Source: Pseudobdellovibrionaceae bacterium
GTDB taxonomy: Bacteria; Bdellovibrionota; Bdellovibrionia; Bdellovibrionales; UBA1609
Direction of reading: 5' to 3'
Length of the DNA stretch: 64,000 nucleotides
Assembly (NCBI GenBank): GCA_015163855.1
Contig: JAAOIK010000035.1
Coordinates: 895 to 64,894, forward strand
Shown here: in pieces, positions 3-40,270 of the stretch
How the letters are laid out: each line of letters begins with the position of its first letter
Position numbering within the stretch: position 1 is the first letter of the stretch
Translations under genes and position numbers: made by a program
Notes under the pieces: model-generated
Database searches by the model: none
What the model saw: only the letters and a program-made list of their open reading frames with translations
What the model was told of the DNA's origin: nothing

Positions 3-2543
3 GCCCAAGGGGATAAAATTTTTATTTCTGATCAATTTCAAAAAAACAAAACATTTAGTAATTTTTTATTAAAGAGCCAAAAAAGCACAGCAGAAGAATT
101 ATCAAAAGCAATATCAACTTTGCCAGCTAAGTACATTGTGTTAAAAGGCGAAAACTTAGAAAGTAAGTTGTACTCTTTATTAGCAGCCAGTGCGTATTTA
201 GAAAAAAACAGTGCACAAAGATACCATGTTGTAAGTCTTCCTTCTTCGTTAATAACTAACGGTATGGATATTGCTAAAATAGAGGCCGTGATTTTTTCTT
301 TAGAAAGTTATTTAAAAGAAAAAATGGTAGTGCATCTTGATACCTTAGGGGGCATTGAAGCAGGAAAGCCACTTCCTCCATCGTTATTATTTTTAGATGC
401 TCTTGAAAAAACACAAAAAGATTTTAGAGTTCCTTTTGTTTTAAATTTTACACAAAACGAAGTAAATGTTTTTTCACAGACAACATTATATAAAGTTGCA
501 AAAGACAAGATAAAAGAAATAGAGACAAAATCACTAAGTGTCGAACAATTAAATGATTTAGCTAAGGTGCTTTTGCCAGAAATACAAAAAAAATACTCGA
601 CTGTAATTAGCGAAAGAGTTATTACCAGCTTATTAAAAGTTGCGCCAATACTGTTTCCTGGCGAAAATATAGTATCGTCGCTTAACCAATTGGTAAAAGA
701 AGTGGTAGAGTCGTTTACCTCTAACAAAGAAATAGAATTAGAGCAGGTAAAAGAACTTGTAGAAAAAAAATATGGTAAAACCAATTTATTTAAAACGGGT
801 TTAGCAGGAGTAGATTTATCTAACAAACAAGAAGTGCTAAAAGTGGTTTTGCAAGTGCAAGATAAAGTTACCAAAGAGTTAATTGGTCAAAACGATGCGG
901 TTACTAAAGTGTCGCAAGCCATAGAAGCGCATTATATGAAAAAAGAAAGAAAAACCCCTTTATCTATTTTTGCAGTGGGTTTAACAGGGGTTGGTAAAAC
1001 CGAATTGGGAAATTTAATTTCTAAACACTTATATGGTTCAAATAGCCTTGCTAACTTTTCTTTAGGTAACTTTTCTCATGTGGGAGATTTAAATAACTTA
1101 TTTGGTTCGGCTAAAGGTTATATTGGTTCTGATGAGATTAGTGAGTTTGAAAAGTTTTTATCAAAAAATCCATCTGGAGGAGTAATTATTTTTGACGAAG
1201 CCTCTAACATGGGTGGAGACAAGCAAGAATCCAAAAACGCTATGTTTAAACGGTTTTATGAGCTTTTAGAAGAAGGTAAGTGGACAGCCTCAAAAAGTGG
1301 AGTCACCTACAACCTAGGTAATTATGTTTTTCTATTTACAGGAAATGATGGCGAAAAAATATTTAAAGGGGTTAATAACGAATCTTACAAAGAACTGCTA
1401 TGGAAGGAAAACAACTCTAGAGAGAAAATTTTTAAAATGTTAACCGAAGTAGGTGTTCCAGAAGCTTTTTTAGGTCGATTAAATGAAGTATTTTTATTTA
1501 AGCCAGTAACTAAAGAAACCGCTATTCAAATTGCTAAAAAATTTATTAAAGATTTTGAAAAAAACTACGAAATTTCTATTAAGTACATTGATAAGGAAAA
1601 GTTTTTTAATAATTTAGTACAAGCTACCTTTTTTGCTTCAGAGGGGGCAAGAAGTGTAAGAAACTTTATCGAAAACCGATTGGGTTCGTACATTGTACGC
1701 GCATCAGAAGAGGCTTTAAGAAGCGGCGAAGCCTTAAAAAGCATAAAGTTAGCTTGGCAAGATAATTTAAACGCTAGAGTTTACGCGGCAAGATCTTTTA
1801 AAAGACAATCGTTTTTAAAGATAAGTATTAGTACAGACAAACACCCTAAATATAGTGCTTTTAAGTCTATAGATGTATCTTCCGATATCATACAAGTAGA
1901 CTTACCAACACGGGCACAGGTTAAAGAAACCGCTTATCACGAAGCGGGGCATGGCTTTTTGTCTTTTGCTAAGCAAACGGGTCAAAAGTTACAATTTATT
2001 TCTGTAATTCCAGGAAGAACATCTGCGGGAATAAATTATTTAGGTGTTGCAGCTTATGATAAAGATATTTTTACAAGTCTTACTTATAAAAACTTAATTA
2101 AAAGAGTGGCTGGATTATTAGCAGGAGGAATGGCTGAAAAAATGGCAGGTTACAATTTATCTTCTGGTTGGAGTAATGACCTTTTACAGGTTAGAACTAT
2201 AATTCAACATGCTTTTTTAAAGGGGACAGTTCTTGAAGGAAAAGGTTTTGAATTTATTAGAATTCAAGGAAAAGAAAATAATGTTAAACTAAGCAAAGAG
2301 CAAGAGAAGCGTTTTCAAGAAGAAGTAGAAAAAGTGATTATTTTAGCTAAAAAAGAAGTGGTTAAAACTTTAACCAAAAAATGGAGCAATGTAGAAAAAG
2401 TAGTAGACCTTTTAATGAAAAAAGGAACTATTAACGCTAAAGAGTTTAGCACTATTGAAAATGATAAAAGCATTAGAGAGGCTTGGGAAGTAGACAGCAA
2501 TTTAAAAGTTTATCAAGCAGCTAGTTGTAAAAGCTTATTTTAG
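3..2543 (+). CDS. AAA+ ATPase (ClpA/ClpB D2-like) fused to an FtsH-type M41 zinc peptidase domain; probably 5'-truncated by the window edge
   Basis: The frame is open from nt 3 with no in-frame stop before the tracked TTG at 120, so the true start probably lies upstream of the window. The middle region looks like Clp/Hsp100 D2: LIGQNDAV, Walker A GLTGVGKTE (978-1001), GYIGSDE, Walker B VIIFDEASNM. The C-terminal region looks like M41: AYHEAGHGF (HEAGH at 1938-1952), GGMAEKM, SGWSNDL. No TM helix seen. Ends in AASCKSLF. Confidence 0.6.
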   Translation, partial: AQGDKIFISDQFQKNKTFSNFLLKSQKSTAEELSKAISTLPAKYIVLKGENLESKLYSLLAASAYLEKNSAQRYHVVSLPSSLITNGMDIAKIEAVIFSLESYLKEKMVVHLDTLGGIEAGKPLPPSLLFLDALEKTQKDFRVPFVLNFTQNEVNVFSQTTLYKVAKDKIKEIETKSLSVEQLNDLAKVLLPEIQKKYSTVISERVITSLLKVAPILFPGENIVSSLNQLVKEVVESFTSNKEIELEQVKELVEKKYGKTNLFKTGLAGVDLSNKQEVLKVVLQVQDKVTKELIGQNDAVTKVSQAIEAHYMKKERKTPLSIFAVGLTGVGKTELGNLISKHLYGSNSLANFSLGNFSHVGDLNNLFGSAKGYIGSDEISEFEKFLSKNPSGGVIIFDEASNMGGDKQESKNAMFKRFYELLEEGKWTASKSGVTYNLGNYVFLFTGNDGEKIFKGVNNESYKELLWKENNSREKIFKMLTEVGVPEAFLGRLNEVFLFKPVTKETAIQIAKKFIKDFEKNYEISIKYIDKEKFFNNLVQATFFASEGARSVRNFIENRLGSYIVRASEEALRSGEALKSIKLAWQDNLNARVYAARSFKRQSFLKISISTDKHPKYSAFKSIDVSSDIIQVDLPTRAQVKETAYHEAGHGFLSFAKQTGQKLQFISVIPGRTSAGINYLGVAAYDKDIFTSLTYKNLIKRVAGLLAGGMAEKMAGYNLSSGWSNDLLQVRTIIQHAFLKGTVLEGKGFEFIRIQGKENNVKLSKEQEKRFQEEVEKVIILAKKEVVKTLTKKWSNVEKVVDLLMKKGTINAKEFSTIENDKSIREAWEVDSNLKVYQAASCKSLF

Positions 2544-2558
2544 GCGGAGAGCATTTTA

Positions 2559-5500
2559 ATGAAGCATTTGTTAAAACAAAGTACTTATTTTATTTTAATT
2601 GTACAGCTACTACTTTCACCAGTAGTAGCTGTAGCAGAATCTGACAGTGTTAGTCGCTTTTATGATAGCAAAACAGACAGCCACCTGCAAAATCAAGACG
2701 CTGTTAATAAGTCAAAACCCCTAACAGAAACAGGAGACTTATTTTTACCAGAATTAAAAGAAACCGACATACGCTTGTTAACCACTTTAGCTTCGGGAGA
2801 TTTTTTAGGTTTAAAAAATCAAACTTTTAAAACTACAGAAGAAAGTTTTTTTAGATCCGACCCCGAATTTGGAAAAAACTTACTGGTAATGCCTCCCTCC
2901 CAAGAACAATTTTTAAAAAACACAAAAATTTACATTCAAGATGGTGTTGTTCATATTAAAGAGCAATTAGACAGTAAAAAACAAGCTTTTGGAAGAGAGC
3001 ATTCTTTTTTTGGGTGGCACTTTAAAGGCGTTCATGTAGCAGGAGATTATTTATTTTTAGAAGTAGACAAAACACAGTCTAAAAACTTACCAGGAGAATT
3101 ATTTAATAATTTTGAATTAAATAAAAACAGCAACAATAGTGTTTTTTTAATTAGGTTAACCGACTTACTAGAACATATGGGTACAAAACGAATTATTATG
3201 TCGGTAATGCCTTTGCCCATGCCTTTGCAAAAAATTACAAATGTAAAGTATCAGGCTTACGACCCTGTGTCTGATAAAAATGCTCCCTATCAAGACAAAG
3301 CTTTAACGGGCTTGTTATCTAGAGATTTTAAAACTTCGGGTTATAAATTTACCGATGCCACAGGAGGGTCGGTAGTAGTGCCAAGCCATGTTCCCGACAT
3401 TTACAGTGATATGTCGCGGTTATTTGTAAAGGCTTTATCTGCAAGTATTGCCCCTTTGCAGCCGTTAAACTCGGAAGGCTTAACTCCTGTTCAAAAAAAT
3501 TACCTTAAAGCTTTAACTAGCTTTGCAAAAAAGCAAAACACTAAACACAATCAAGTTTTTGACACTATCCTTACAGGAATATTAAAAAAACTAAACCCTT
3601 CGCATTTAACAGAGGTTCCCTTTTCTAGTGTTCTTGATTTTGTTCGAGCCAGTTATGCAGACACTATAACCACTCCTAAAAAGGGGTCTTGGGTGGGGCA
3701 AGCGTATTCGCAATTAAAAATTAATCCAAAAGATTTAACTCAAGCCCAAGTTGATTTTGAACAACAGGCTAAAGAGCAAGTAAAAGATTACTTACAAGCA
3801 CAAAAAAACACGGGCGGCAAAGAGTTAAAACAAGCAGGGCGAATGATGCGAACATTAAAAAACCCTCACCCCAACAGTCGTGATATTACATTGGCTTTAC
3901 AGGCAAAAGAGCAAATAAAAAAAGCCAGATACTTTTCTAAAGAAAAATTAACACAATTTATGAAGGGCCCTTTGGGAAATGTTGTAGGGGTTATGGGCAT
4001 AACGGCTTTAACTTTGTCATTATACCATTACACAGGTTTTGGAGGTTGGGCCGACGGTGTAGGAGAAGGTTTTAAGGCACAGTTTAGCTCTGGTACCGAG
4101 GCAATAAAAGCTTTAAAAGTTAATGCAGTGGTGGTGATTGGTTACTTGGGTGGCTTAGGAGCTTTGTTATATTTAGGAACAAAATTAAAAAACAAATTAC
4201 ACAAAACTAAGCAGTCTTTAGTAGTTAGTTTGGCAAATATTGCTAAATATAAATCGTTATTTTTTAGGCATTTGTTTTCGGTTAGAGGAATGGTAAATGC
4301 TATTTTTCCTAATTACTCGCAAAGTGTTTACCGCTATGTAGTCCCTCAAAAAAAATTAGGGGCTTATGATGTGCGGTTTTCTAAATCTTTAAAGCAAGTG
4401 GGAAAGTTTTTAAATTTTAAAAGCTTTTTTGTTAAATTATTAAGGTTTAATAATGTAAAGGATAGCGGCGAGTCGGTTGTTTTTAAAACGCTTTCTAAGC
4501 AAGATAAAGATAGTAGCAAAAAAATAGCTCTTAACAAAGAGGCCTTGGTTAACAAACGCTCCGAGGAGTTAATTTTATTTGAAATGCTACCTCACTTAGC
4601 CAAAACATTAAAAGTTAGCGAATTAGATTTATTAAGTGCCATGGCCCTTAAAAATGTATCTTTGGGTTCTTCCGAATTTTTAGATTGGGATTTTAAAACC
4701 TTATCTAATTGGGCTAAAAATAGTGAAGATCAAAAAATTAAAAAGGCGTTAATTCAATTTAAAAGTAAAAAGCACAAAATAGAAACTCAGTACAGTGGTT
4801 TACTTTCTAAATATTTTTTATATAAAAATGAAAAGCGAATAATGAAAAAAATTAAAAAGACAAAAGATTTTCAAGGCCAAAGGGCTTTTTTAAAATCTTT
4901 ATACTACTTGTCTCTTAAAGACTTAAGGCTTCAGGGGTTTGAAGACCCAAAACGCTTAACTATAGAGCAGGCAAAAAGTATTTTTTCTGATAATTTAGAA
5001 AAGCTAAAAGCCTTTGTAAGCCAAGAAAGCAATTTTGATAAAGTGGCTATGGAGCAAAACATTATAAAAGCCACGCGCAGCTTTCAATCGGTTTACCAAT
5101 TGTTGCATAAAGAAAAAACCAGTGGATTAAAGCAAAGGCAGTTTGTTGCAATGGCTAAAATAAACACCGATCATGTTACCCATACATTAAGGGCTACTTC
5201 TTTAGATTATGGTATGGAAAGGGTTCAATCTTATGCAGAATTTTTTAAAACTTTACAAGCTAGGGGCATTAGTTTTTATGACCCCACTAGCTGGTTTACC
5301 GAAAACCACACCATGGGGCTTTATAATCAAGATGCTCGTCATGCTTTGTGGAACCCTGTTGCTCATATTATTTCAGGGCCTTTAGGTACGGCAAATATTA
5401 TTAGTCGATCGGGCCCCGATGCAGTGGATTATGGTGTAGAAAACACCTCTTTTTTTTACCGAAATATAAGACAGTTTGTAAACCCGCAAAGGTACAGACA

Positions 5501-6188
5501 AATGGGGATTTTTAATAAATCGATGTGGTACGAGTATAAAAGAAATTTTTTAAGAGGACTAATCCCTGCATTTAGTTTTTCTGTGGTTTTACAAATGACT
5601 TTTTACCACGAATTTCGCCCCGATATTTTTGTGGGCTATATGTTTTTGTATGGACCCATTGGTTTTGTTTGGCATTATATTCAAAGTAAGTTGTTAATGA
5701 CTACGCAAGCCATTAAGTACGAAAGCATAAAGCCAAAATTATTAAAAAATTTAGAACAAGAACAAAAAATGGCAAATACCGTTACAAAAAAGTGGGCTTT
5801 GGCCATGAAAAAGTATGCCATAAAAGTAAACCCACAATGGTTTTATATTGTGCCTGATTTAATTTTATTTAATGCCTTAACTTTTTTTATGGAGCGATGG
5901 AGTTACGATAAAGGGCCTGTGCAAATGTTAAGTTCGTGGTTGGGAAAAACATTTAATCAGCCCAATTGGGAATTTAGCTTGTACGAATTACAATCTAAGT
6001 TTGTTACCCCTTACTTACCTAAGTGGGCAATGGGTATTGCAGCTAGTTACTTAGCTTACCAGCTATATATAAAGTTAAGAGATAAAAAAGCAGGAAAAAA
6101 CTTAGTAAATAAGATAGTAAAAACCAGCAAAAAAAGCATAAAAGTAAACTCCGTTTTTGCAGGTAGTTGTAAATCGTTATTTCGTTAA
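2559..6188 (+). CDS. Large (1209 aa) signal-peptide-bearing polytopic membrane protein of unknown function
   Basis: N-terminal signal-like segment ILIVQLLLSPVVAVAESD. Hydrophobic helices around residues 470-545 and in the last ~250 aa. Lies 15 nt after the upstream stop, with GGAGAG ahead of the ATG. Ends in AGSCKSLFR. I recognise no family motif. Confidence 0.55.
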   Translation: MKHLLKQSTYFILIVQLLLSPVVAVAESDSVSRFYDSKTDSHLQNQDAVNKSKPLTETGDLFLPELKETDIRLLTTLASGDFLGLKNQTFKTTEESFFRSDPEFGKNLLVMPPSQEQFLKNTKIYIQDGVVHIKEQLDSKKQAFGREHSFFGWHFKGVHVAGDYLFLEVDKTQSKNLPGELFNNFELNKNSNNSVFLIRLTDLLEHMGTKRIIMSVMPLPMPLQKITNVKYQAYDPVSDKNAPYQDKALTGLLSRDFKTSGYKFTDATGGSVVVPSHVPDIYSDMSRLFVKALSASIAPLQPLNSEGLTPVQKNYLKALTSFAKKQNTKHNQVFDTILTGILKKLNPSHLTEVPFSSVLDFVRASYADTITTPKKGSWVGQAYSQLKINPKDLTQAQVDFEQQAKEQVKDYLQAQKNTGGKELKQAGRMMRTLKNPHPNSRDITLALQAKEQIKKARYFSKEKLTQFMKGPLGNVVGVMGITALTLSLYHYTGFGGWADGVGEGFKAQFSSGTEAIKALKVNAVVVIGYLGGLGALLYLGTKLKNKLHKTKQSLVVSLANIAKYKSLFFRHLFSVRGMVNAIFPNYSQSVYRYVVPQKKLGAYDVRFSKSLKQVGKFLNFKSFFVKLLRFNNVKDSGESVVFKTLSKQDKDSSKKIALNKEALVNKRSEELILFEMLPHLAKTLKVSELDLLSAMALKNVSLGSSEFLDWDFKTLSNWAKNSEDQKIKKALIQFKSKKHKIETQYSGLLSKYFLYKNEKRIMKKIKKTKDFQGQRAFLKSLYYLSLKDLRLQGFEDPKRLTIEQAKSIFSDNLEKLKAFVSQESNFDKVAMEQNIIKATRSFQSVYQLLHKEKTSGLKQRQFVAMAKINTDHVTHTLRATSLDYGMERVQSYAEFFKTLQARGISFYDPTSWFTENHTMGLYNQDARHALWNPVAHIISGPLGTANIISRSGPDAVDYGVENTSFFYRNIRQFVNPQRYRQMGIFNKSMWYEYKRNFLRGLIPAFSFSVVLQMTFYHEFRPDIFVGYMFLYGPIGFVWHYIQSKLLMTTQAIKYESIKPKLLKNLEQEQKMANTVTKKWALAMKKYAIKVNPQWFYIVPDLILFNALTFFMERWSYDKGPVQMLSSWLGKTFNQPNWEFSLYELQSKFVTPYLPKWAMGIAASYLAYQLYIKLRDKKAGKNLVNKIVKTSKKSIKVNSVFAGSCKSLFR

Positions 6189-6296
6189 TCAAGCCTTGTG
6201 GATAATAAAACTTTTCGGCTATAAAACTTTGCAAGCAATCAAGCCTTGCAGGATAATAAAACCTGCAAGCAATCAAGCCTTGCGGATAATAAAACC
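6187..6296. repeat. Three direct copies of a ~26-bp element, AATCAAGCCTTG(n)GGATAATAAAAC(C)
   Basis: Copies start at 6187, 6237 and 6271. Copy 1 contains TGTGGATAA, the reverse complement of the DnaA-box consensus TTATCCACA. Copy 3 has TGCGGATAA (1 mismatch). TGCAAG..CTTGCA short stems lie between copies. The array sits between the stop at 6188 and a TATAAT at 6309-6314, upstream of the 6334 gene. Confidence 0.7.
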
Positions 6297-6333
6297 TCTA
6301 GACTTAGCTATAATATACTAATACTCTTAACCT

Positions 6334-7371
6334 ATGAGTAACTTTATTAAAAGTATTTCTGAAGATGTGGTTTTTTTTTCTTACAGAGATTTAAAGCTGT
6401 TGCCTTCGGCAAAGTCACTTTATGTTTGGGATTTAGATAAAACTTACCTAGACACTCGTTTTGAAAACATAAGGTCATTACTAAAAACGGCTTTCGAAAA
6501 CTCGAAAGATAAGGCCAATGTTCCGGGAACAAAAACCTTACTACAATCTTTAGATACAAAAGATGACGATAGTACTGCGATTTTTTTTATTACTGCATCT
6601 CCTCCACAAATGGAAGAAAAAATTTTTAGAAAGTTGCGCTTAGATGGTATTCGCCCTTGGGGAATATTTTTTAAAAACAATTTAAAAAATATTTTTCCAC
6701 CTAGCCGATGGCGGCGATTAACCCAGCATGTGGGGTATAAATTACAGGCTTTATTGCATTTGCATTTATTAGGCGATTCGAAAATATTATCCCAATTTTT
6801 ATGGGGCGATGATAGCGAAATGGATGCGGTAATTTACAGTTTGTATTCAGACATTTGCTCGCACCGGTTAAAGGGCGAAATGTTAGAAGCCGTGTTAAAG
6901 CACTTTCATATTTCGGCGCAATGTAAAGCTATTATGGATTTGCAAGAAAAAATTATTGCCGCCGATCCAGTTAAGCGCATTTACATTAATTTAGAAGAAG
7001 GCACAGATGTAGAATATTATCAAAAATTTGGCTCGCGGGTTTTACCCACTTACACCAGCTTTCAAAGTGCCATTGATTGTTTTAAAAAAGACAAAATTAC
7101 TTTGCGCGACTTAGTTAAAGTGGGCCAAGACCTTCGCGACAATTATTTATTTTCTAAAGAGGCTGCCGAAAAAAGCCTTTTAGATTTAGCCACCAGACAA
7201 GTGCTAGACCAAAACACTTACAAAGCCGTAGTGCCTAGTTTTAAAAAAGCAGAGCTTATTAGCGAATTGTTTGAAATAGAATATTCTGCAGACCCTGTAT
7301 TTGTAGAAGAAAACCAAAGGGAAGAAGATAAAGAGGTTTTTGAAATTGATTATTTTAATGACTATCGTTAA
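6334..7371 (+). CDS. HAD-superfamily-like hydrolase (App1/DUF2183-like layout)
   Basis: DxDxT motif in YVWDLDKTYLDT. FFITASPPQM (motif II-like) and LWGDDSEMDAVIY (motif IV-like acidic pair). Confidence 0.5.
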   Translation: MSNFIKSISEDVVFFSYRDLKLLPSAKSLYVWDLDKTYLDTRFENIRSLLKTAFENSKDKANVPGTKTLLQSLDTKDDDSTAIFFITASPPQMEEKIFRKLRLDGIRPWGIFFKNNLKNIFPPSRWRRLTQHVGYKLQALLHLHLLGDSKILSQFLWGDDSEMDAVIYSLYSDICSHRLKGEMLEAVLKHFHISAQCKAIMDLQEKIIAADPVKRIYINLEEGTDVEYYQKFGSRVLPTYTSFQSAIDCFKKDKITLRDLVKVGQDLRDNYLFSKEAAEKSLLDLATRQVLDQNTYKAVVPSFKKAELISELFEIEYSADPVFVEENQREEDKEVFEIDYFNDYR

Positions 7372-7378
7372 GTAAGCA

Positions 7379-7407
7379 TAGTCAAAAAACTTCTCTTAAG
7401 TTATAAT
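7379..7407 (+). promoter_or_regulatory. Possible sigma70-type promoter for the mraY block
   Basis: TAGTCA (7379-7384), 17-nt spacer, TATAAT (7402-7407), 22 nt upstream of the mraY ATG. Sequence match only. Confidence 0.3.
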
Positions 7408-7428
7408 TTTTAAAAAGGATGTAAAAAT

Positions 7429-8502
7429 ATGTTTAAGTTTTTGTCTGCATTTGTACCGGATTGGCCTTTTTTAAATGTTTTTCACTATATTACGGTGCGC
7501 AGTTTTTTATCGTTTTTTACTACTTTTTTTATAGTGCTTTATTTGGGGCCGGTGGTTATTAAACTTTTAAGACAATTTAAAATGAAGCAAAGTATCCGAA
7601 CCGACGGGCCCGAAACGCATTTAAAAAAAGAGGGCACTCCCACTATGGGAGGGTGGATAATTATATTAGGAACAGCCATTTCGTCTTTTTTTTGGTTAGA
7701 TTTTTCTAACCCCTTGGTGCAATTTTTATTATTTATTTTAGCCAGCTTTGCCTGCGTGGGAGGGGCCGATGATTACTTAAAGGTTCGCTCTAGTAGTGCT
7801 AAAGGTTTATCTGGTAAATTGCGATTATGCTTAGAGTTTTTACTATCTGCGGGCTTTTTGCTGTATTTAATTACACAGGGTTATGTAAGCACAGAAGTGT
7901 ATTTTCCGTTTTTTAAAAATGCCGTAGTCGACCTATCTTGGTTTTATGCTTTGTTTGGTGGCTTGGTTATTGTGTCTTCTGCCAATGCGGTAAATTTAAC
8001 CGACGGTTTAGATGGGTTGGCCATTGTGCCTTTAATTATTGCCATTAGCACTTTAATGATTTTTAGTTATGTGGCAGGGCATAGTGTTATAGCCGAATAT
8101 TTAAATATTCCCTTTATTGCTAAATCCAGCGAATTAAGTGTTTTAGGTTCTAGCGTGATTGCCGCCAGTTTGGGTTTTTTATGGTTTAATGCTTATCCGG
8201 CTCAAGTATTTATGGGAGATGTAGGTAGTTTAAGCTTAGGTGGCTTTTTAGGAGCCTTAGCCGTAGTTACCAAAAATGAGTTAATTTTAATTGTGATTGC
8301 AGGAGTTTTTGTAGTCGAAGCCTTGTCGGTAATGATACAGGTGTTTTTTTATAAATTAAAAGGCAAGCGAGTCTTTAAAATGGCCCCCTTACATCATCAC
8401 TTTGAGCTAAGCGGTATTGCAGAAAATAAAGTCATTATTCGCTTTTGGATTGTTTCTATTTTATTAGCGGTATTAAGTTTACTGAGTTTAAAGTTGCGTT
8501 AA
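7429..8502 (+). CDS. mraY: Phospho-N-acetylmuramoyl-pentapeptide transferase
   Basis: KEGTPTMGG, NAVNLTDGLDGLA, FMGDVGSLSLGG, MAPLHHHFE. About 10 TM segments. dcw synteny. Confidence 0.95.
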   Translation: MFKFLSAFVPDWPFLNVFHYITVRSFLSFFTTFFIVLYLGPVVIKLLRQFKMKQSIRTDGPETHLKKEGTPTMGGWIIILGTAISSFFWLDFSNPLVQFLLFILASFACVGGADDYLKVRSSSAKGLSGKLRLCLEFLLSAGFLLYLITQGYVSTEVYFPFFKNAVVDLSWFYALFGGLVIVSSANAVNLTDGLDGLAIVPLIIAISTLMIFSYVAGHSVIAEYLNIPFIAKSSELSVLGSSVIAASLGFLWFNAYPAQVFMGDVGSLSLGGFLGALAVVTKNELILIVIAGVFVVEALSVMIQVFFYKLKGKRVFKMAPLHHHFELSGIAENKVIIRFWIVSILLAVLSLLSLKLR

Positions 8503-8571
8503 TACTATTGTTTGTTTATAACTTTTTAATGAAGCTGTGAATTGTTTTGAGAGGTTTTAAGGAGTAGCACT

Positions 8572-9954
8572 ATGAATGATGTAAAGGGTAAAAATGTAAT
8601 GATTGTGGGCTTGGGCAAAGTGGGCGTGTCTTTGTCTAGATTTTTATTATCTTTAGGAGCTAATGTTACCATTAGTGATCATAAATCTCCTCCAGAATTA
8701 GCCTACTATTTAGAACAAATTGACGACTTAGACATTAATTATGACTTAGGAGAACACTCTTTAAAGCTATTTTTAAAGCAAGATTTATTAATATTAAGCC
8801 CAGGGGTTTCGCCCGATTTAAAAGTTATTCAATACGCAAAAAATAATGAAGTACCTATTATTGGCGAAATGGAGTTTGTTTCGGCTTTTATTCAAGAACC
8901 TATTATTGCAGTAACAGGAACTAATGGAAAAACCACAACGGTAAAATTAATTCGTGATTTTTTACATGAATCTAATGTTAAAGTGTGGGCGGGTGGTAAT
9001 TACGGCGAACCAGCATCGGCGTATTTATTAAGTGGAAAAAAAGCCGATGTAGTTATTTTAGAAGTTTCTAGTTTTCAATTAGACATGTGTAAAACCTTTG
9101 CTCCTAAAACAATTGTTTTTACTAATTTATCAGAAAATCACTTAGACCGACATAAAAGTTTTGAAGCTTATGTTCAAGCCAAAAAACAAATTTTTGTAAA
9201 TAATAATGTTAACACCACTTGTATTTTAAACGCCGATGACGCCAATATTGTAGCCTTAGCGCGAGACCCAATTGTTTATCAAAAAAGTATTATTTTTTAT
9301 TTTTCTACTAACCCTTATTTTAAACAACAAATTATGACTATTGGTGGAGTAGTTAAAGTGGGCAACGAGTTACAAATTAAAGCCACTCCTCAATTAGATT
9401 TTTTATCTTTAGAAGATATAAAGTTAAAGGGATTGCATTCAGTCGAAAATATTATGGCAGCCTTACTGGCAGCGATGGAGCATGGAGCAACTATGCAGGC
9501 TATTAAAAAGGTAGTTTCTAGTTTTAAAGGATTGCCTCACCGTTTAGAATATGTTCGTCGAGTGGGAGGGGTTTTATTTTACAACGACTCTAAAGCCACT
9601 AATGTGCAAGCCGTAAAAAAAGCTTTAAATTCTTTTGATGAAAATGTTATTTTAGTTATGGGAGGAAAAGACACAGGGTTAAGTTACGAATCTTTAGCCG
9701 ACGATATTAAAGCGAAAGTAAAAACTTTAATTTTAGTAGGCGAAGCTAAAGAAAAAATTAATCGCGATTTGGGTGGAATTTCAGAAACTTTAATTATTGG
9801 TACTTTCGACGAAGCGGTATATACGGCTTATCAAAAAAGCAGAGTGGGCGACACGGTTTTATTATCACCAGGTTGCGCTAGCTTTGATGTGTTTAATAGC
9901 TATGCCGAACGAGGTAACCACTTTAAACGCATGGTAAATGAGTTTAATGCTTAA
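8572..9954 (+). CDS. murD: UDP-N-acetylmuramoylalanine--D-glutamate ligase
   Basis: N-terminal Rossmann motif VGLGKVG. Mur ligase P-loop GTNGKTTT. Position between mraY and ftsW. Confidence 0.92.
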   Translation: MNDVKGKNVMIVGLGKVGVSLSRFLLSLGANVTISDHKSPPELAYYLEQIDDLDINYDLGEHSLKLFLKQDLLILSPGVSPDLKVIQYAKNNEVPIIGEMEFVSAFIQEPIIAVTGTNGKTTTVKLIRDFLHESNVKVWAGGNYGEPASAYLLSGKKADVVILEVSSFQLDMCKTFAPKTIVFTNLSENHLDRHKSFEAYVQAKKQIFVNNNVNTTCILNADDANIVALARDPIVYQKSIIFYFSTNPYFKQQIMTIGGVVKVGNELQIKATPQLDFLSLEDIKLKGLHSVENIMAALLAAMEHGATMQAIKKVVSSFKGLPHRLEYVRRVGGVLFYNDSKATNVQAVKKALNSFDENVILVMGGKDTGLSYESLADDIKAKVKTLILVGEAKEKINRDLGGISETLIIGTFDEAVYTAYQKSRVGDTVLLSPGCASFDVFNSYAERGNHFKRMVNEFNA

Positions 9955-9968
9955 AAAAAAGGCTTTGC

Positions 9969-11090
9969 GTGCGTAAGTCGAAATCTTTTTCTTTAGACAA
10001 AGGTTTGTTTTTGTCTTTTATTTTTTTTATATTTTTCGGCTTAGTACATATTTATTCTTCAAGTTATATTTTTGCATTAGAAAAATATGGAAATCCATTA
10101 TATTTTTTTAATAAACAAGTAGTATTTACGCTGGTTTCTTTAGTGGTATTTTACATTACCATTAAATTGCCATGGCAGGTTGTTGTGCGTTTTTCTTCTT
10201 TGGCATTTTTTATCATTTTGTTTTTATTGGCTTTAACTTTAGTTCCATCAATAGGTGTAAAGGTGGGTGGGGCTAGGCGCTGGCTAAGTTTACCTTTATT
10301 TAATATTGAGCCAGTGGAGTTTTTTAAAATCATTATGGTGTTTTACTTTGCCAGGTTATTAAGTTTTAAAGATTGGATGGAAAATAAAAAAACTATTGCA
10401 ATACAGGTGGGTTTATTTTTTACTCCACTAATTATTTTATTGCTGCAGCCCGATTTTGGTAGTGTGGTTATTTATTTAGTGGTTTTTTTTGCACTATTAT
10501 TTGTATCGCCCATTAAACTTAGATGGATTTTACTAAGCGTAGTTACGGCCTTGGTGAGTTTATTTACTTTAATTATAATAGAACCCTATCGATTAAAACG
10601 CTTGCAAGCCGTGTTAGACCCATGGTCTGACCCCTACGGAAAAGGCTTTCAGTTAATTCAAAGTTTATTGGCTTTTTACTCGGGTTCTTGGTTGGGAAAG
10701 GGTTTGGGCGAGGGGCAAAGCAAACTCTTTTTTTTACCAGAAGCCCATACCGATTTTACTTTAGCGGTTTTAGGTGAAGAAATTGGCTTTGTTGGAGTTA
10801 GTTTTTTTATTAGTTTATATACCTATATAATTTATAAAGGCTTTGTAATTGCTTATCAAAGCAAAGACATTTATCAGTCTTATGTGGCCACAGGTTTAAC
10901 CGTGGTATTTGGGCTAGGGGTGTATTTAAATATTGCCATCGAATTAGGCCTGTTGCCTCCCAAAGGTTTATCTTTAGCTTTTTTAAGTTATGGAGGTAGT
11001 CATCTGTTAGCCAATAGTATTATTATTGCTATATTATTAAATATTGATAAAGCCACAAAAAAAGCCAGATACAAAAAAGCTTGGGGTTAA
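9969..11090 (+). CDS. ftsW: SEDS-family peptidoglycan polymerase FtsW
   Basis: GTG start. Polytopic. LQPDFGS and EAHTDF motifs typical of FtsW/RodA. Its position between murD and murG supports ftsW. Confidence 0.85.
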   Translation: MRKSKSFSLDKGLFLSFIFFIFFGLVHIYSSSYIFALEKYGNPLYFFNKQVVFTLVSLVVFYITIKLPWQVVVRFSSLAFFIILFLLALTLVPSIGVKVGGARRWLSLPLFNIEPVEFFKIIMVFYFARLLSFKDWMENKKTIAIQVGLFFTPLIILLLQPDFGSVVIYLVVFFALLFVSPIKLRWILLSVVTALVSLFTLIIIEPYRLKRLQAVLDPWSDPYGKGFQLIQSLLAFYSGSWLGKGLGEGQSKLFFLPEAHTDFTLAVLGEEIGFVGVSFFISLYTYIIYKGFVIAYQSKDIYQSYVATGLTVVFGLGVYLNIAIELGLLPPKGLSLAFLSYGGSHLLANSIIIAILLNIDKATKKARYKKAWG

Positions 11091-11093
11091 GAC

Positions 11094-12215
11094 ATGAATA
11101 ATAACACAAAAAACAAAGTAATATTTGCAGGTGGAGGAACAGGGGGGCATATTTACCCTGGCTTAGCCTTGGCACAATATTTAGAAGGCACACAAGCTAA
11201 TCAAGAAAGTATTTTTATTGGAGGCAATCAGGGGCTAGAAAAATCTATTTTATCTACTACAAAATATTTATTAAAAACCACCTTGGTAAAACCCTTTAAC
11301 CAAGCAGGAGCATTAAAAAAAATACTATCCTTGTTTTGGTTTTTACCCATAGCCACTATACAAGCTATAATTTTATTAATAAAAATAAAACCAAAGTGGG
11401 TGCTAAGTTTAGGCAGTTATGCGGCTGTTCCCGTAGGTATTGCTGCTTTTTTATTAAGAATACCTTTATTTACTTGGGAGCCCAATGCTAAAGCGGGTTT
11501 AGCCAATCGTTTGTTGTCGTATTTTTCTCGCATTAATTTTATTATTTTTAAAGAAGTAAAAAACCAATTAAAAGGGCAATGTTTAATTTCGGGCCTTCCT
11601 TTGCGAAAAGAACTAATTAAAAAAATACCTTTGTCTGGCCCAGTGCCCTTTACAAACACCACTGCGTTTTCTTCTAAACAGCCCTTTAAAATTTTAATTG
11701 TAGGAGGCAGTTTAGGTTCTAATTTTTTAAACACTAATTTTTGTAAACTGTGGCCTTATTTAAAGCAACATCCTATTTCGATTATTCATCAAACAGGAAA
11801 AAAGCATTTTGAAACCACTAAGCAAGCTTACAAAATTTATAACCAAAATGCGCTAAAGTATAAAGTAGTAAAATATTTACCCAACATTTACGAAGAATAC
11901 GGGTGGGCCAATTTAGTAATTTCTCGAGCAGGAATAAATACTTTATTCGAGCTAGCCGCTTGTGCAAAGGCTAGTGTGTTAATCCCTTACAGTTTGTCGG
12001 CAGATAACCATCAATACAAAAATGCAAAAGTCTTAGAAAAAAACAAACAAGCTATTTTGGTAGAAGAAAAAGCCTTTTCTACAATAAAGTTAAAAAGCAT
12101 AATCGAAAACTTTATTCAATACCCCGAAACGCTAGCCCATTTAGAAAAAAACATAACTAGCTTTTACAGTAAAAATGCAGAAGGCTTTATCATAGACAAA
12201 ATAACTAAAACTTAG
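11094..12215 (+). CDS. murG: UDP-GlcNAc:lipid I N-acetylglucosaminyltransferase
   Basis: GGGTGGHIYPGLA glycine-rich loop. dcw synteny. Confidence 0.9.
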   Translation: MNNNTKNKVIFAGGGTGGHIYPGLALAQYLEGTQANQESIFIGGNQGLEKSILSTTKYLLKTTLVKPFNQAGALKKILSLFWFLPIATIQAIILLIKIKPKWVLSLGSYAAVPVGIAAFLLRIPLFTWEPNAKAGLANRLLSYFSRINFIIFKEVKNQLKGQCLISGLPLRKELIKKIPLSGPVPFTNTTAFSSKQPFKILIVGGSLGSNFLNTNFCKLWPYLKQHPISIIHQTGKKHFETTKQAYKIYNQNALKYKVVKYLPNIYEEYGWANLVISRAGINTLFELAACAKASVLIPYSLSADNHQYKNAKVLEKNKQAILVEEKAFSTIKLKSIIENFIQYPETLAHLEKNITSFYSKNAEGFIIDKITKT

Positions 12216-12234
12216 TCAGTATTCTCGCAAAGGC

Positions 12235-12326
12235 GTTTTAAGAGATTATTTTATTTAAACCCTTTTGCTCTGGCATCCCTTCGGGCTGAGTCGCCAAAGG
12301 GCTTAAATAAAATAATCTCTTAAAAC
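12235..12326 (+). repeat. Long imperfect inverted repeat (31-bp arms, 30/31 complementary) with a structured 30-nt loop
   Basis: Left arm is 12235-12265, GTTTTAAGAGATTATTTTATTTAAACCCTTT. Right arm is 12296-12326, AAAGGGCTTAAATAAAATAATCTCTTAAAAC. The loop contains TGGC..GCCA and CCCTTCGGG (a C(UUCG)G-type cap). It lies in the 159-nt murG-murC gap. Confidence 0.75.
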
Positions 12327-12374
12327 CCATTTACTCGCCTCTTAAAACTCAACCATTGTGAGCCAGTTTTTTTT

Positions 12375-13850
12375 ATGCTATTTATAAGCATGGCCAAAAA
12401 CCCAAAAAATTCGCATTTAAAATTAGCTAACAAAGACCACTTATTAAAGTTGCCTCAATTATCTCATTTACATATTCATTTTATTGGAGTGGGTGGAATT
12501 GGTGTTAGCGGGTTAGCAGAAATTTTTTTTAACATGGGGGCTACGATTTCGGGTAGTGATTTAAAAGAAAATCAGCAAACTTTATGGTTAAAAGATTTAG
12601 GAATTTCGGTTTCCATTGGTCACAAGGCAGAAAATGTTTGCCAAGCCAATGTGGTTATTTATTCTAGTGCTATTGCTAAAAACAATGTGGAATTTTTAGA
12701 GGCAAAAAAATTAGGACTAAGTGTAATTTCTCGTGGAGAAGCTTTGGCCGAACTTATGTTTTTAAAAAGAGGTGTAGCTGTGGCAGGGGCTCATGGCAAA
12801 ACCACAACCACAGCTATGTTAACTTCTGTATTTATGCCCTTTTCTCCTACCACAGTGGTTGGGGGTAGAGTTAACTCCATTGGCTCTAACAGTTGTTTGG
12901 GTGCGGGGGAGTGGTGCTTGGTAGAGTCTGACGAAAGTGATGGTAGTTTTATTAAATTACGACCCGAAATTGCTATTATTACTAATTTAGACAAAGAACA
13001 TTTAGATTATTATAAAAGTTTTTCTAATTTAAAAAAATATTTTTTAGAGTTTGGGTCTAACATTCCCTTTTATGGAGCTTTAATTGTTTGCGGCGACGAC
13101 CCTGAGCTTTCCGAAATGTTTAAAGATTTTTATAAAAATATTATTTATTATGGCTGGAATAAAAGTAATGATTTTTATTTACAAAAAGTCCATCTTAAAA
13201 AGGTAGAAATTGTAGAGAAAAAAACAGGCACAGTGGTGGGGTCGTTTGCTCCTCCCCTTCCAGGTAGACATAATGCTTTAAATGCTTTGGCAGCAGTGAT
13301 TGCAGGTTATCAATCGGGCTTGTCGTGGCAACAGTCTTGTGAAAATTTATCACTGTTTACGGGTTTATCTAGACGCTTTGAGCTAAAAAACGAAACCAAT
13401 GCGGTATTATTTTATGATGATTATGCTCATCACCCCACAGAAATTACAGCCGTTATCGAAGCCTTTAAAGAAACTTATCCTAATAAAAAATTAAAAATTT
13501 TATTTCAACCCCATCGTTATAGCAGAACGCAACATTTGTGGGTGGATTTTTTAACCTGTTTTAAAGGCGCCGATCAAGTATTTTTAATGGATGTTTACGA
13601 GGCTGGCGAAGCTCCAGTAAAGGGAGTAAATGCTTTTGAGTTAGCAAAACAAATTAAGCAAGTAAAGGCTGAGTACTTAAAAGAATCGGATATTTTAAAT
13701 TATTTTTCTAAAAATTTGTTACCAGAAGATATTTTTTTAACTCTAGGTGCTGGTGATATTTCTTTATGGAATGAAAAAGTTTATACCGCTTTAAAAGGAA
13801 ACAGTAGTGTATGCAGCAACCAAAAAACCTTAAAGAAAACTACAGTTTAA
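12375..13850 (+). CDS. murC: UDP-N-acetylmuramate--L-alanine ligase
   Basis: GVGGIGVSGLAE and GAHGKTTTT. The start could instead be the second ATG at 12390. Confidence 0.92.
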   Translation: MLFISMAKNPKNSHLKLANKDHLLKLPQLSHLHIHFIGVGGIGVSGLAEIFFNMGATISGSDLKENQQTLWLKDLGISVSIGHKAENVCQANVVIYSSAIAKNNVEFLEAKKLGLSVISRGEALAELMFLKRGVAVAGAHGKTTTTAMLTSVFMPFSPTTVVGGRVNSIGSNSCLGAGEWCLVESDESDGSFIKLRPEIAIITNLDKEHLDYYKSFSNLKKYFLEFGSNIPFYGALIVCGDDPELSEMFKDFYKNIIYYGWNKSNDFYLQKVHLKKVEIVEKKTGTVVGSFAPPLPGRHNALNALAAVIAGYQSGLSWQQSCENLSLFTGLSRRFELKNETNAVLFYDDYAHHPTEITAVIEAFKETYPNKKLKILFQPHRYSRTQHLWVDFLTCFKGADQVFLMDVYEAGEAPVKGVNAFELAKQIKQVKAEYLKESDILNYFSKNLLPEDIFLTLGAGDISLWNEKVYTALKGNSSVCSNQKTLKKTTV

Positions 13851-14788
13851 AACGATTAAACTCTTGGAGAGTGGGCGGCGAGGCTAGGTACTTTGCCACG
13901 CCTAGTTCTGTGGACGAGCTAAAGGCCCTTTTGCTGTGGGCCTCTTTTTATAAAATTGTGGTATTTATATTAGCCGACGGAACTAATTTATTAATTAGTG
14001 ATAAGCCTTTGGAAGGTTTAGTAATTGGTTTAAAAAAATTACGAACTAGCACCGAAGAAATAAAAGAAATAGAAAACAAAAAAGACATATCTAGCTTATC
14101 TTTTTCTTTGTTATCGGGCACTCCAAAAAATGATTTATTTAGTATTTGTTTAAAACAACATTTGTCGGCAAGTATTTTTTTAGCAGGCCTTCCCGGAAGT
14201 GTTGGAGGAGGGGTAGTTATGAATGCAGGGGTGGGTTTTGATGTTTGCCCTAAAGAGTTTAAAGATATTGTAGATTGGGTAGAGGTTTTATCTTTTAACC
14301 CCGAAGATAAAAGTTTTAAAAAAACTCAATATAAAAAATCCGAGCTACTATGGGGATACAGGTCTTGTAAAAATTGGCAATCTAATAAAAATAACGCCAA
14401 CAAAGATATCATTACTAAAGTGGGCTTTTGTTTTTCGTCAAAAGAATTTGATAAACCTTTAAAGCAAAAACAAGTTATTGAAAACAAGGTGCAAGAGGCA
14501 CAGGTTTTTAGAAAAACCAAACAACCCGTTAATACTTTTAATTGCGGGTCGGTGTTTAAAAACCCCAAAGGATATTCGGCAGGAGCATTAATTGACGAGT
14601 GTGGGTTAAAATTAGCTTCTGTGGGAGGGGCGTCGGTTTCGCAGTTACATGCCAATTTTATTGTTGCAGAAAAGGGAACTAAATCGACAGATATTTTTTT
14701 GTTGATTAAAAAAATACAAAATACAGTTTTAGAAAAAAAAAATATTGCTTTAAATTTAGAAGTAAAATTAATGGGAAGCTTTAATTAG
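13811..14788 (+). CDS. murB: UDP-N-acetylenolpyruvoylglucosamine reductase
   Basis: SWRVGGEA, GTNLLISD, GSVFKNP, SQLHANFIV. Overlaps the murC 3' end by 40 nt. Confidence 0.87.
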   Translation: MQQPKNLKENYSLKRLNSWRVGGEARYFATPSSVDELKALLLWASFYKIVVFILADGTNLLISDKPLEGLVIGLKKLRTSTEEIKEIENKKDISSLSFSLLSGTPKNDLFSICLKQHLSASIFLAGLPGSVGGGVVMNAGVGFDVCPKEFKDIVDWVEVLSFNPEDKSFKKTQYKKSELLWGYRSCKNWQSNKNNANKDIITKVGFCFSSKEFDKPLKQKQVIENKVQEAQVFRKTKQPVNTFNCGSVFKNPKGYSAGALIDECGLKLASVGGASVSQLHANFIVAEKGTKSTDIFLLIKKIQNTVLEKKNIALNLEVKLMGSFN

Positions 14789-14821
14789 GTTTCTTAAAAA
14801 AAAGGATTTTAAAAATATACA

Positions 14822-33744: not shown

Positions 33745-33820
33745 AAATTCTTTACCTTGACTTTTCTTGTATAGATTTTTATAAAGTTTGTATTATCTTA
33801 AAAGGGGGATACAATTTTTT

Positions 33821-39288: not shown

Positions 39289-39291
39289 ATA

Positions 39292-40218: not shown

Positions 40219-40270
40219 AGCTGTATAATTGGTATATTTTTACTTATGCCCATCCTCCCTTTAGTATAAG

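Follow-up and report, generated by a model that had tools for sequence, protein, structure and literature searches.

The 64,000-nucleotide (nt) window analyzed here, from contig JAAOIK010000035.1 of a Pseudobdellovibrionaceae bacterium (positions 895 to 64,894, forward strand), begins within the gene of a large protease, in which a Clp/Hsp100-type AAA+ motor is joined to an FtsH-type zinc metallopeptidase of the M41 family. The whole analysis was computational. Positions 3-2543 (+) form one open frame of 846 codons that closes with a stop at 2541-2543; its start lies beyond the 5' edge, off which the frame runs, as the initial annotation had stated. The full-length protein was identified by database search (P0001, 952 amino acids (aa), 100% identity, 100% coverage). 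It is named in NCBI as hypothetical protein HAW63_04050 of a Bdellovibrionaceae bacterium, and derives from a metagenome-assembled genome (MAG). The window holds the 3' 2541 nt of the gene, which encode residues 107-952 and the stop. The missing 5' end (318 nt, residues 1-106) was recovered from contig L001 at 407-724, where window position equals L001 position minus 722. An AAGGAAG Shine-Dalgarno sequence precedes the ATG, and about 300 nt of AT-rich intergenic DNA lies 5' of this ribosome-binding site. It had been supposed that further domains, such as a D1 ring, could lie upstream; the recovered DNA adds just 106 residues, with a signal peptide and no D1. The domain order of the complete protein is a Sec signal peptide, a short helical region, a degenerate D1, an active D2, a D2-small lid, a β-rich linker, the M41 domain, and a Cys-containing tail. 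The features within the window are listed in Table 1. The AlphaFold2 model has a mean predicted local distance difference test score (pLDDT) of 77.8, which exceeds 90 for about residues 285-930 and is poor for residues 100-280.

Table 1. Features of the protease gene and the adjacent gene in the window. Counts out of 22 refer to relatives of 24-61% identity.
Feature	Position	Strand	Basis
Degenerate Clp D1-like module	3..824	+	residues ~107-380
GQNDAV motif	885-902	+	sequence check
Large subdomain of active AAA+ (Pfam AAA_2, ClpB-D2 type)	963..1487	+	residues 427-601; pLDDT >90
Walker A GLTGVGKTE (K438)	978..1004	+	G432, T434, G435, G437, K438 invariant, 22/22
Pore loop AKGYIGSDE (Y479)	1110..1136	+	aligns with ClpB D2 GAPPGYVGYEE
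Walker B GGVIIFDEASNM (D504, E505), includes VIIFDEASNM	1176..1211	+	D504 22/22, E505 20/22
Pre-sensor-1 β-hairpin and sensor 1 EEGKWTASKSGVTYNLGNYVFLFTGND (N554)	1269..1349	+	aligned to ClpB; N554 22/22
Arg-finger region PEAFLGRLNE (R598)	1458..1487	+	aligned to ClpB PEFLNRLDE; R598 22/22
D2-small (lid) subdomain	1503..1724	+	ClpB alignment; ClpB_D2-small (PF10431) matches in relatives
Sensor 2 EGARSVRNF (R656)	1641-1667	+	R656 22/22
β-rich linker, ~50 aa, AAA lid to M41	1734..1874	+	residues 684-730; AlphaFold2 strands
Peptidase_M41 (FtsH-type zinc metallopeptidase)	1914..2456	+	residues 744-924
Zinc/catalytic motif HEAGH (H752, E753, H756)	1938..1952	+	aligned to FtsH AYHEAGHAV; 21-22/22
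GGMAEKM motif	2124-2144	+	sequence check
SGWSNDL motif (D832)	2163..2183	+	D832 aligns with Asp of FtsH TSGAANDI; 21/22
C-terminal Cys tag CKSLF-COOH (C948)	2526..2540	+	P0001 ends AASCKSLF; C948 at least 90% conserved
Adjacent gene, 1,209-aa orphan with signal peptide (MKHLLKQSTYFILIVQLLLSPVVAVA before ES) and hydrophobic segments	2559..6188	+	15 nt downstream
Tag CKSLF, then R and stop (tail ...AGSCKSLFR), with the neighbour's single Cys	6168..6182	+	sequence

The ATPase was compared with the known AAA+ types. In Pfam, AAA_2 matched window-frame residues 321-495 (E 3.2e-9, 37.5 bits against a gathering threshold of 27), whereas the generic AAA model PF00004 scored lower, at 21.3 bits; a Torsin match of 24 bits was sub-threshold. 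In NCBIfam, the ATPase aligned with ClpV and ClpB over their D2 half (model positions ~551-850), at scores that missed the equivalog cutoffs (ClpV1, 82 bits against 885; ClpB, 81 against 1232). The best PDB sequence match was nucleotide-binding domain 2 (NBD2) of ClpB (E 6.8e-21). The alignment to Thermus thermophilus ClpB NBD2 is colinear through the Walker A, the GYxG pore loop, the Walker B, the pre-sensor-1 hairpin, the sensor 1, the Arg finger, and the GAR sensor 2. The pre-sensor-1 hairpin is a hallmark of the HCLR clade, and its strands were found in the model at residues 532-534, 541-543, and 547-553. The pore-loop position is aromatic in 15 of the 22 relatives. The D2 module satisfies the motif set of Clp/Hsp100 class I, with residues invariant in 22/22 relatives. 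Judged by its sequence, the motor is of the Clp/Hsp100-D2 type and belongs to the HCLR clade (pre-sensor-1 hairpin, GAR sensor 2), and is not a classical FtsH-type AAA.

The C-terminal part matched Pfam Peptidase_M41 (PF01434; E 1e-17, 65 bits against a gathering threshold of 29.9; window-frame residues 638-818). Residues 744-925 align with the protease domains of FtsH from Thermotoga maritima, T. thermophilus, and Aquifex aeolicus, and of AFG3L2 (PDB sequences). The FtsH models of NCBIfam matched solely by their protease part (positions 417-597 of 598), and the FtsH chains of the PDB solely over residues 744-925. TIGR01241 scored 56.5 bits against a cutoff of 600, in the protease part only, and PRK10733 scored 20.9 against 1008. 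The Asp that matches D832 is the third zinc ligand in FtsH crystal structures. Judged by its sequence, the C-terminal domain is truly of the M41 type, and its zinc site is intact. The linker that precedes it has strands at residues 684-693, 709-717, and 727-730, all of high pLDDT in the AlphaFold2 model, and residues 684-730 gave no family match. Among the 22 relatives, K438, D504, N554, R598, R656, and E753 are invariant, and E505, H752, H756, and D832 are nearly so. Because these catalytic residues are kept across such divergent relatives, the ATPase and zinc sites are both under selection.

The reading of this protein as a Clp-D2-type motor with an FtsH-type M41 domain had been proposed in the initial annotation. 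Both parts are borne out, the motor by the preference for AAA_2 over PF00004, the ClpB/ClpV D2 alignment, and the PDB match to ClpB NBD2, and the peptidase by the 65-bit Pfam match and by the HEAGH and Asp residues aligned to FtsH. The motifs quoted there were all found in place by a sequence check. Two findings had been named as pointing to an ordinary FtsH instead, namely no significant M41 match, or an FtsH-type AAA with transmembrane (TM) helices encoded just upstream. The M41 match proved significant, the ATPase was assigned to the Clp type, and the upstream DNA encodes no such helices.

The N-terminal region (residues ~106-364) was identified as the remnant of a Clp D1 module. Its Walker A (GxxGxGKT) is replaced by LKGENLESK and its Walker B IDE by LDT, so that no P-loop is left and the Walker B Glu is lost. 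An hhalign comparison with the D1 modules of relatives with three AAA modules gave a probability of 96.4% (E 1.3e-9, 243 columns), against under 1% for the other AAA modules of the relatives. A MAFFT alignment had placed this region as a remnant of the middle AAA_2; this was ruled out by hhalign (0.1%, against 96.4% for D1). The lid subdomain of the remnant (residues ~285-345) is well predicted, with pLDDT low over 100-280 and high from 285. The best Foldseek matches in the PDB were the two-ring chains of ClpC1, ClpC, ClpB, and ClpA, over ~600 columns. A functional D1 is lacking in the window protein and present in the longer relatives P0005 and P0016. The decayed D1 is probably a structural or substrate-binding collar.

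An exhaustive phmmer search was performed with P0001 over 1.84 billion representatives at 50% identity. The initial annotation had not recognized the architecture, and had proposed a survey of homologues and their gene neighbourhoods. The architecture proved to be shared by a family: at E<=1e-30, the search gave 150 clusters at 50% identity, typically with two or three P-loops before the M41 domain; 44 family loci were found among the GTDB species representatives, and neighbours at such loci share the Cys tag of the protease. About 140-150 clusters have the D2 and M41 core in common. Most of the clusters align across residues 380-925, that is, D2 and M41, and ClpB-type proteins show up only near E 1e-20. 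Because the Clp D2-M41 architecture recurs in ~150 independent clusters, it is neither a chance event nor an assembly artefact. Typical members have 1,100-1,600 aa. Among 104 full-length members with HEXXH, three P-loops were found in 56, two in 38, and one in nine. P0005 and P0016 consist of a Clp-D1-like module, two AAA_2 modules, and M41; P0003 has an N-terminal β-rich region, two AAA_2 modules, and M41. The window protein and its orthologue P0002 (951 aa) are the reduced extreme and the shortest form of the family.

About 40 of the 44 GTDB loci lie in Bdellovibrionota-type MAGs (Bdellovibrionales, Pseudobdellovibrionaceae, Bacteriovoracaceae, and Oligoflexia), and some of these MAGs hold two paralogues. 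Alphaproteobacteria account for four loci, and two species among them are in culture, Rhodoblastus acidophilus DSM 137 and Roseiarcus fermentans DSM 24875. Paralogue pairs with different N-terminal architectures were observed at L030 and L036 (MAG 'clean60') and at L024 and L025 (MAG GL92_UP_concoct_173), and suggest that the family has diversified within genomes. In the source databases, the members are labelled only as 'hypothetical protein', 'AAA family ATPase', or 'ClpA', and full-text literature searches yielded no account of a Clp motor fused to M41 or of any AAA+ protease that is exported. These single-chain AAA+ zinc proteases form a family not described before, found mainly in Bdellovibrionota, and the window protease represents its shortest form.

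The family shares features with several AAA+ systems. As in FtsH, the m-AAA, and the i-AAA (Yme1) proteases (MEROPS M41), an M41 domain follows an AAA+ motor in one chain, the HEXXH and Asp residues are conserved, and a hexameric ATPase ring on a protease ring would be expected. However, the motor of the window protease is an HCLR-clade Clp D2 (AAA_2), whereas that of FtsH is a classical AAA (PF00004 with the second region of homology); the family has one to three stacked AAA modules, whereas FtsH has one. FtsH has two TM helices flanking a periplasmic domain, in place of which the window protease has a cleavable-looking signal peptide, and the β-rich linker and the C-terminal Cys tag are extra to FtsH. 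The TIGR01241 cutoff was not reached. In Yme1, a single N-terminal TM helix leaves the catalytic body in the intermembrane space, a compartment that corresponds topologically to the periplasm. The class I Clp/Hsp100 proteins (ClpB, ClpA, ClpC, and ClpV) resemble the family in the D2, which is colinear with ClpB NBD2, and the longer relatives also have D1-like, D2-like, and ClpB_D2-small modules. They differ in that their peptidase is the separate ClpP, whereas here it is fused; moreover, the D1 is degenerate in the window protease, many relatives have a third AAA module, and a signal peptide is present. Class I proteins also have a Clp_N domain, together with a ClpB M-domain or an IGF/L loop. 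No Clp_N (PF02861) was matched by Pfam in the window protease, whereas the ClpB controls have it, and its alignment to ClpB has no insertion after sensor 1 and no IGF/L insertion for ClpP docking. Lon is likewise a single soluble chain with an HCLR-clade AAA+ motor fused to a peptidase. However, its peptidase is a Ser-Lys S16 type, it has one AAA module, and it is cytoplasmic, without a signal peptide or a Cys tag; no Lon_C or S16 match was found by Pfam in the window protease. The protease is thus predicted to work like FtsH, ClpAP, and Lon, yet is a member of none of them.

The N-terminus of the protease (MKFLLLNVFFIFSVIFSSTSYA before GFETG) is a Sec-type signal peptide or N-terminal hydrophobic segment of residues 1-22. 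It consists of the n-region MK, the h-region FLLLNVFFIFSVIF (14 residues), and SSTSYA before G, with an S-Y-A cleavage site. By heuristic prediction, it has the features of a Sec signal peptide: a positive n-region, an h-region of 10-16 residues, small residues at -3/-1, and no further TM segment. The ETG[IL]SV sequence just past the predicted cleavage site is conserved in the 61-64% identical orthologue P0002. A crude rule on the n-, h-, and c-regions was positive for 17/22 close relatives (two of the misses are 5'-truncated) versus 0/98 ClpB-like controls, for 30 of the 33 full-length GTDB loci, and for 85 of 104 representatives; several of the 'negatives' look signal-like or mis-started. 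A hydrophobic core lies within the first 60 residues of 92/104 members. Among members with a core, 76% have [AVSTG]-x-A at most 16 aa after it, versus 28% of internal windows (p 2e-21); this test is not circular, as the site was not chosen by it. Lysine or arginine precedes the core, and the positive-inside rule therefore puts the protein body outside the cytoplasm. The initial annotation had described the protein as having no membrane anchor. This holds for the part in the window, which lacks an FtsH-like TM pair, and fails for the whole protein, which carries the N-terminal hydrophobic segment upstream. An internal TM-like segment was found in only one of 104 members, and the window protein has none beyond the N-terminal segment. 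Overall, some 80-90% of the family begin with a signal-peptide-like sequence and have no further TM segment.

The C-terminus carries a second shared feature, a Cys tag that the initial annotation had not noted. Cys residues occur in the last 40 residues of 136/143 members; the motif has the logo C-x-x-[LAIV]-[FL], and its Cys usually stands 5-15 residues before the end. The distance from Cys to the end varies from 5 to over 20 residues. Counted from the end, the last Cys is the fifth residue or farther in 134 of the 136 members, and the fourth in just one. The tail after the tag Cys has 4 to ~15 mostly polar residues and no hydrophobic helix. P0001 has exactly two cysteines, C89 (5' of the window) and C948 (2526-2528), and such a pair would be compatible with a disulfide in an oxidizing compartment. 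Both cysteines are kept in P0002, as C80 and C947.

The same tag ends the adjacent 1,209-aa protein, whose ATG is preceded by a GGAGAG Shine-Dalgarno sequence; the two genes are probably co-transcribed. This neighbour has no homologue except itself in 5.8 billion sequences. A DNA repeat or duplication was ruled out as the source of the shared tag. The Ser codons of SCKSLF are AGC in the protease and TCG in the neighbour, which belong to different codon families, so the match is at the protein level. Among the 77 open reading frames (ORFs) of at least 100 aa in the 64 kb, the tag occurs in the two adjacent genes only, plus one spurious antisense ORF; being so confined, it is unlikely to be a general export signal of the organism. 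At the orthologue locus (L002), the equivalent neighbour has 1,435 aa and ends in KCSDLFN. It is unrelated to the 1,209-aa protein (BLASTP E>1), and because the two are dissimilar, the tag is not inherited with a protein family.

Tagged neighbours were also found at other loci. There are five at the P0016 locus, all with signal peptides and in one tight same-strand cluster, three at L007, and one each at L010, L012, and L029. At the Bdellovibrionota loci, 16/254 non-family ORFs are tagged, whereas internal windows gave a background of 0.6% (p 1e-11). Tagged ORFs are enriched for signal peptides (odds ratio 3.9) and for positions at most two genes from the protease gene (odds ratio 4.2). Five of the tagged neighbours, with 534-1,677 aa, contain no Cys other than that of the tag. 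The tagged proteins with signal peptides include an ABC1/UbiB-kinase-like protein and a homologue of ribose-phosphate diphosphokinase (TIGR01251, 152 bits, cutoff 113), both of them homologues of enzymes that use ATP, and some of the tagged neighbours look like secreted hydrolases. The C-x-x-Φ-Φ tag marks a co-encoded guild of putatively exported proteins. Its role could lie in sorting or docking; alternatively, the tag could be recognized or processed by the protease, serve as a tether (through a disulfide of its Cys), or act as a zinc-directed cysteine switch. The tight same-strand clusters of signal-peptide genes, many of them tagged, extend over 1200-19020 in L005 (the P0016 locus) and 1076-16959 in L007. 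They include two LOG/'Lysine_decarbox'-like proteins, a homologue of phosphoribosyl pyrophosphate (PRPP) synthetase, an Exo_endo_phos protein, and an ABC1-kinase-like protein, and the substrates of these enzymes (nucleotides, ATP) are cytoplasmic.

The alphaproteobacterial members keep the C-terminal Cys (VDVCARLLV), as observed at L019 (2976-9701, R. acidophilus DSM 137) and L021 (4359-11117, Roseiarcus fermentans DSM 24875). No tagged neighbours were seen at these two loci. A conserved uncharacterized gene (958-972 aa) stands before the family member there, and a conserved gene of ~490 aa after it.

The tag was compared with known C-terminal signals. A C-terminal Phe of the PDZ-binding or outer-membrane-protein type is disfavoured, since many members run 5-20 residues past the motif. 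In the CAAX box, the Cys is exactly fourth from the end, whereas that of the family is usually five or more from it; the protease associated with the tag is an M41 with AAA+, and not an intramembrane CPBP/Rce1 protease. The Cys-containing C-terminal sorting signals of the MYXO-CTERM type are similar in that unrelated proteins combine a signal peptide with a short C-terminal motif around an invariant Cys, and are encoded near a protease gene. However, the prokaryotic Cys sorting signals have three parts (doi 10.1101/2023.06.07.544157), a motif followed by a TM helix and then an Arg cluster, whereas the tag described here has no TM segment or Arg cluster after the Cys.

These observations might be explained together if the protease is a hexameric, exported unfoldase-protease, similar to Lon and ClpAP, that meets ATP outside the cytoplasm of the producer, possibly in prey. 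This explanation is considered the probable one, with considerable room for doubt. By analogy with ClpAP, Lon, and FtsH, six chains would assemble into a stacked ring. ATP hydrolysis in the D2 ring (K438, D504/E505, N554, R598, and R656) would pull the substrate by the pore loop Y479. The M41 domains, fused C-terminal to D2, would form a protease ring where ClpP docks on ClpA. The unfolded chain would enter the M41 chamber and be cut at the zinc site (H752/H756/D832), with E753 acting as the base. The signal peptide would direct Sec export across the inner membrane of the producer. ATP is absent from the bacterial periplasm, although the ATPase motifs are invariant, and action in an ATP-containing compartment outside the producer cytoplasm is therefore suggested. 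For Bdellovibrionota, the candidate compartment is the prey cell or the bdelloplast, which is the weakest step of the proposal.

Several points weigh against this explanation. An exported AAA+ enzyme in a periplasm without ATP is paradoxical unless it reaches another cell, and we know of no route into the prey cytoplasm. The alphaproteobacterial members (R. acidophilus and Roseiarcus fermentans, 1,277-1,279 aa) have no convincing signal peptide; because they keep the Cys motif, the tag is not purely an export signal. A scan with only three peptide patterns gave no match in any cultured predator such as B. bacteriovorus, which does not establish absence. The signal-peptide calls come from the crude n/h/c-region rule, which is a heuristic of this study, the N-terminal third of the AlphaFold2 model is of low confidence, and the pore-loop aromatic is missing in 7/22 relatives.

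Clp/Hsp100-related AAA+ proteins with a signal sequence and a non-cytosolic site of action exist in eukaryotes, namely the torsins, which act in the ER (endoplasmic reticulum) lumen, and Plasmodium HSP101 of the PTEX translocon. Unlike the window protease, they have no fused peptidase, and their compartments are known to contain or access ATP. Homology to them is seen for the AAA fold only, and the weak Torsin match reflects the shared D2-like fold. To our knowledge, no exported Clp-like ATPase has been described in bacteria. HSP101 acts in the parasitophorous vacuole (PMC8896661).

A more specific form of the proposal concerns the neighbours. In this form, the Clp-M41 protease, the PRPP-synthetase-like protein, and the ABC1-kinase-like protein would belong to a Sec-exported, Cys-tagged guild that is delivered to the prey or bdelloplast and runs on prey ATP, with the tag linking the guild to the protease. 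It is offered tentatively and is rather unlikely, being more doubtful than the proposal in its general form.

One rival explanation is a membrane-tethered cytoplasmic protease. The N-terminal segment would then be an uncleaved anchor, with the Clp-M41 body kept in the cytoplasm of the producer, and the protein a quality-control protease analogous to FtsH with a different motor. The need for ATP would be satisfied without an extra assumption, the alphaproteobacterial members without a signal peptide are presumably cytoplasmic, and the uncharged N-terminal run, with a median of 20 residues in the family, could just span a membrane. However, the K/R residues before the core predict an N-in orientation with the body outside, and the A-x-A enrichment after the core (76% vs 28%) fits signal-peptidase cleavage, which an anchor does not need. 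The same combination of N-terminal signal and C-terminal tag also occurs on unrelated neighbours, including those that resemble secreted hydrolases. This alternative is regarded as rather unlikely.

Still less probable is a dedicated enzyme for tag processing or maturation, as opposed to a protease for bulk degradation, in which the motor would engage the C-x-x-Φ-Φ tails of the guild and its own tail, and the M41 domain would trim them. The tagged proteins do cluster with the protease gene, the protease itself bears the tag, and E. coli FtsH processes its own C-terminus. Such an enzyme would resemble FtsH self-processing as well as sortase- and myxosortase-type systems. The known C-terminal signals that contain a Cys have proteases dedicated to their cleavage (Haft 2023, doi 10.1101/2023.06.07.544157). 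However, an unfoldase of two or three rings is excessive for tail trimming, the alphaproteobacterial loci have no tagged neighbours, and the distance from Cys to the C-terminus ranges from 5 to over 20 residues. Finally, the view that the protein is merely a divergent FtsH of the ordinary kind, or that a clpB-like and an ftsH-like gene lying side by side were fused by artefact, is effectively refuted despite the FtsH-like M41 domain, since the ATPase aligns to ClpB/ClpV D2 with a sensor 2 and a pre-sensor-1 hairpin, TIGR01241 falls far short of its cutoff (56.5 bits against 600) and matches the protease part only, no TM helix pair is present, and the same continuous ORF recurs in ~150 clusters from independent assemblies. 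An anti-phage defence component was also considered and rejected; PADLOC gave generic ClpB-D2-like matches (PDC-M37B, DolB) that do not cover the M41 domain.

Five AAA+ proteases are canonical in bacteria: ClpXP, ClpAP/ClpCP, HslUV, Lon, and FtsH. The family described here represents a sixth design, in which a Clp stack of up to three rings is fused to an M41 chamber. The fusion shows a natural recombination of motors and peptidases, and its mechanism can be studied as that of a natural single-chain 'ClpA-FtsH'. Further novel features for an AAA+ protease are the unexpected export signal and the new Cys tag that it shares with neighbours. All of the periplasmic or secreted bacterial proteases known to us are ATP-independent, because the periplasm has no ATP. 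The conserved signal peptide together with the invariant ATPase motifs therefore implies either a new topology rule or action in another cell. If predators do act in this way, the prey's own ATP would be used to dismantle the prey proteome. If a guild is delivered to prey, this protease would be the first ATP-dependent one known to act outside the cytoplasm of its producer, and the Cys tag would represent a new kind of signal, for sorting, docking, or processing. The shared tag is also a handle for finding the remaining components of the system, and the cultured R. acidophilus DSM 137 and Roseiarcus fermentans DSM 24875 make the form without a signal peptide experimentally tractable.

The rest of the window was also examined. 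Promoter and terminator scans gave counts equal to the shuffled expectation, and the tRNA scan found no tRNA genes in the 64 kb. After the tagged neighbour, at 6187-6304, there are three copies of ~25-34 nt (AATCAAGCCTTG[Y][R]GGATAATAAAAC, at ~6187, 6237, and 6271), interleaved with a 17-nt periodicity. The protease pair stands directly 5' of the cell-wall and division (dcw) cluster, over 6334-15787 (mraY, murD, ftsW, murG, and murC-like), with a homologue of APP1_cat-like phosphatases (6334-7371) between the two. The junction of APP1_cat and mraY is kept at the orthologue locus L002, where TldD/PmbA genes and two small ORFs are inserted. The remainder of the window is core chromosome (22041-24233, 37375-41773, 33788-35635, 54354-55661, and 61931-63724), with a TadG-like protein of the Tad/Flp pilus, two large FHA-domain proteins, ribosomal protein S1, SecY, and aspartyl-tRNA synthetase.

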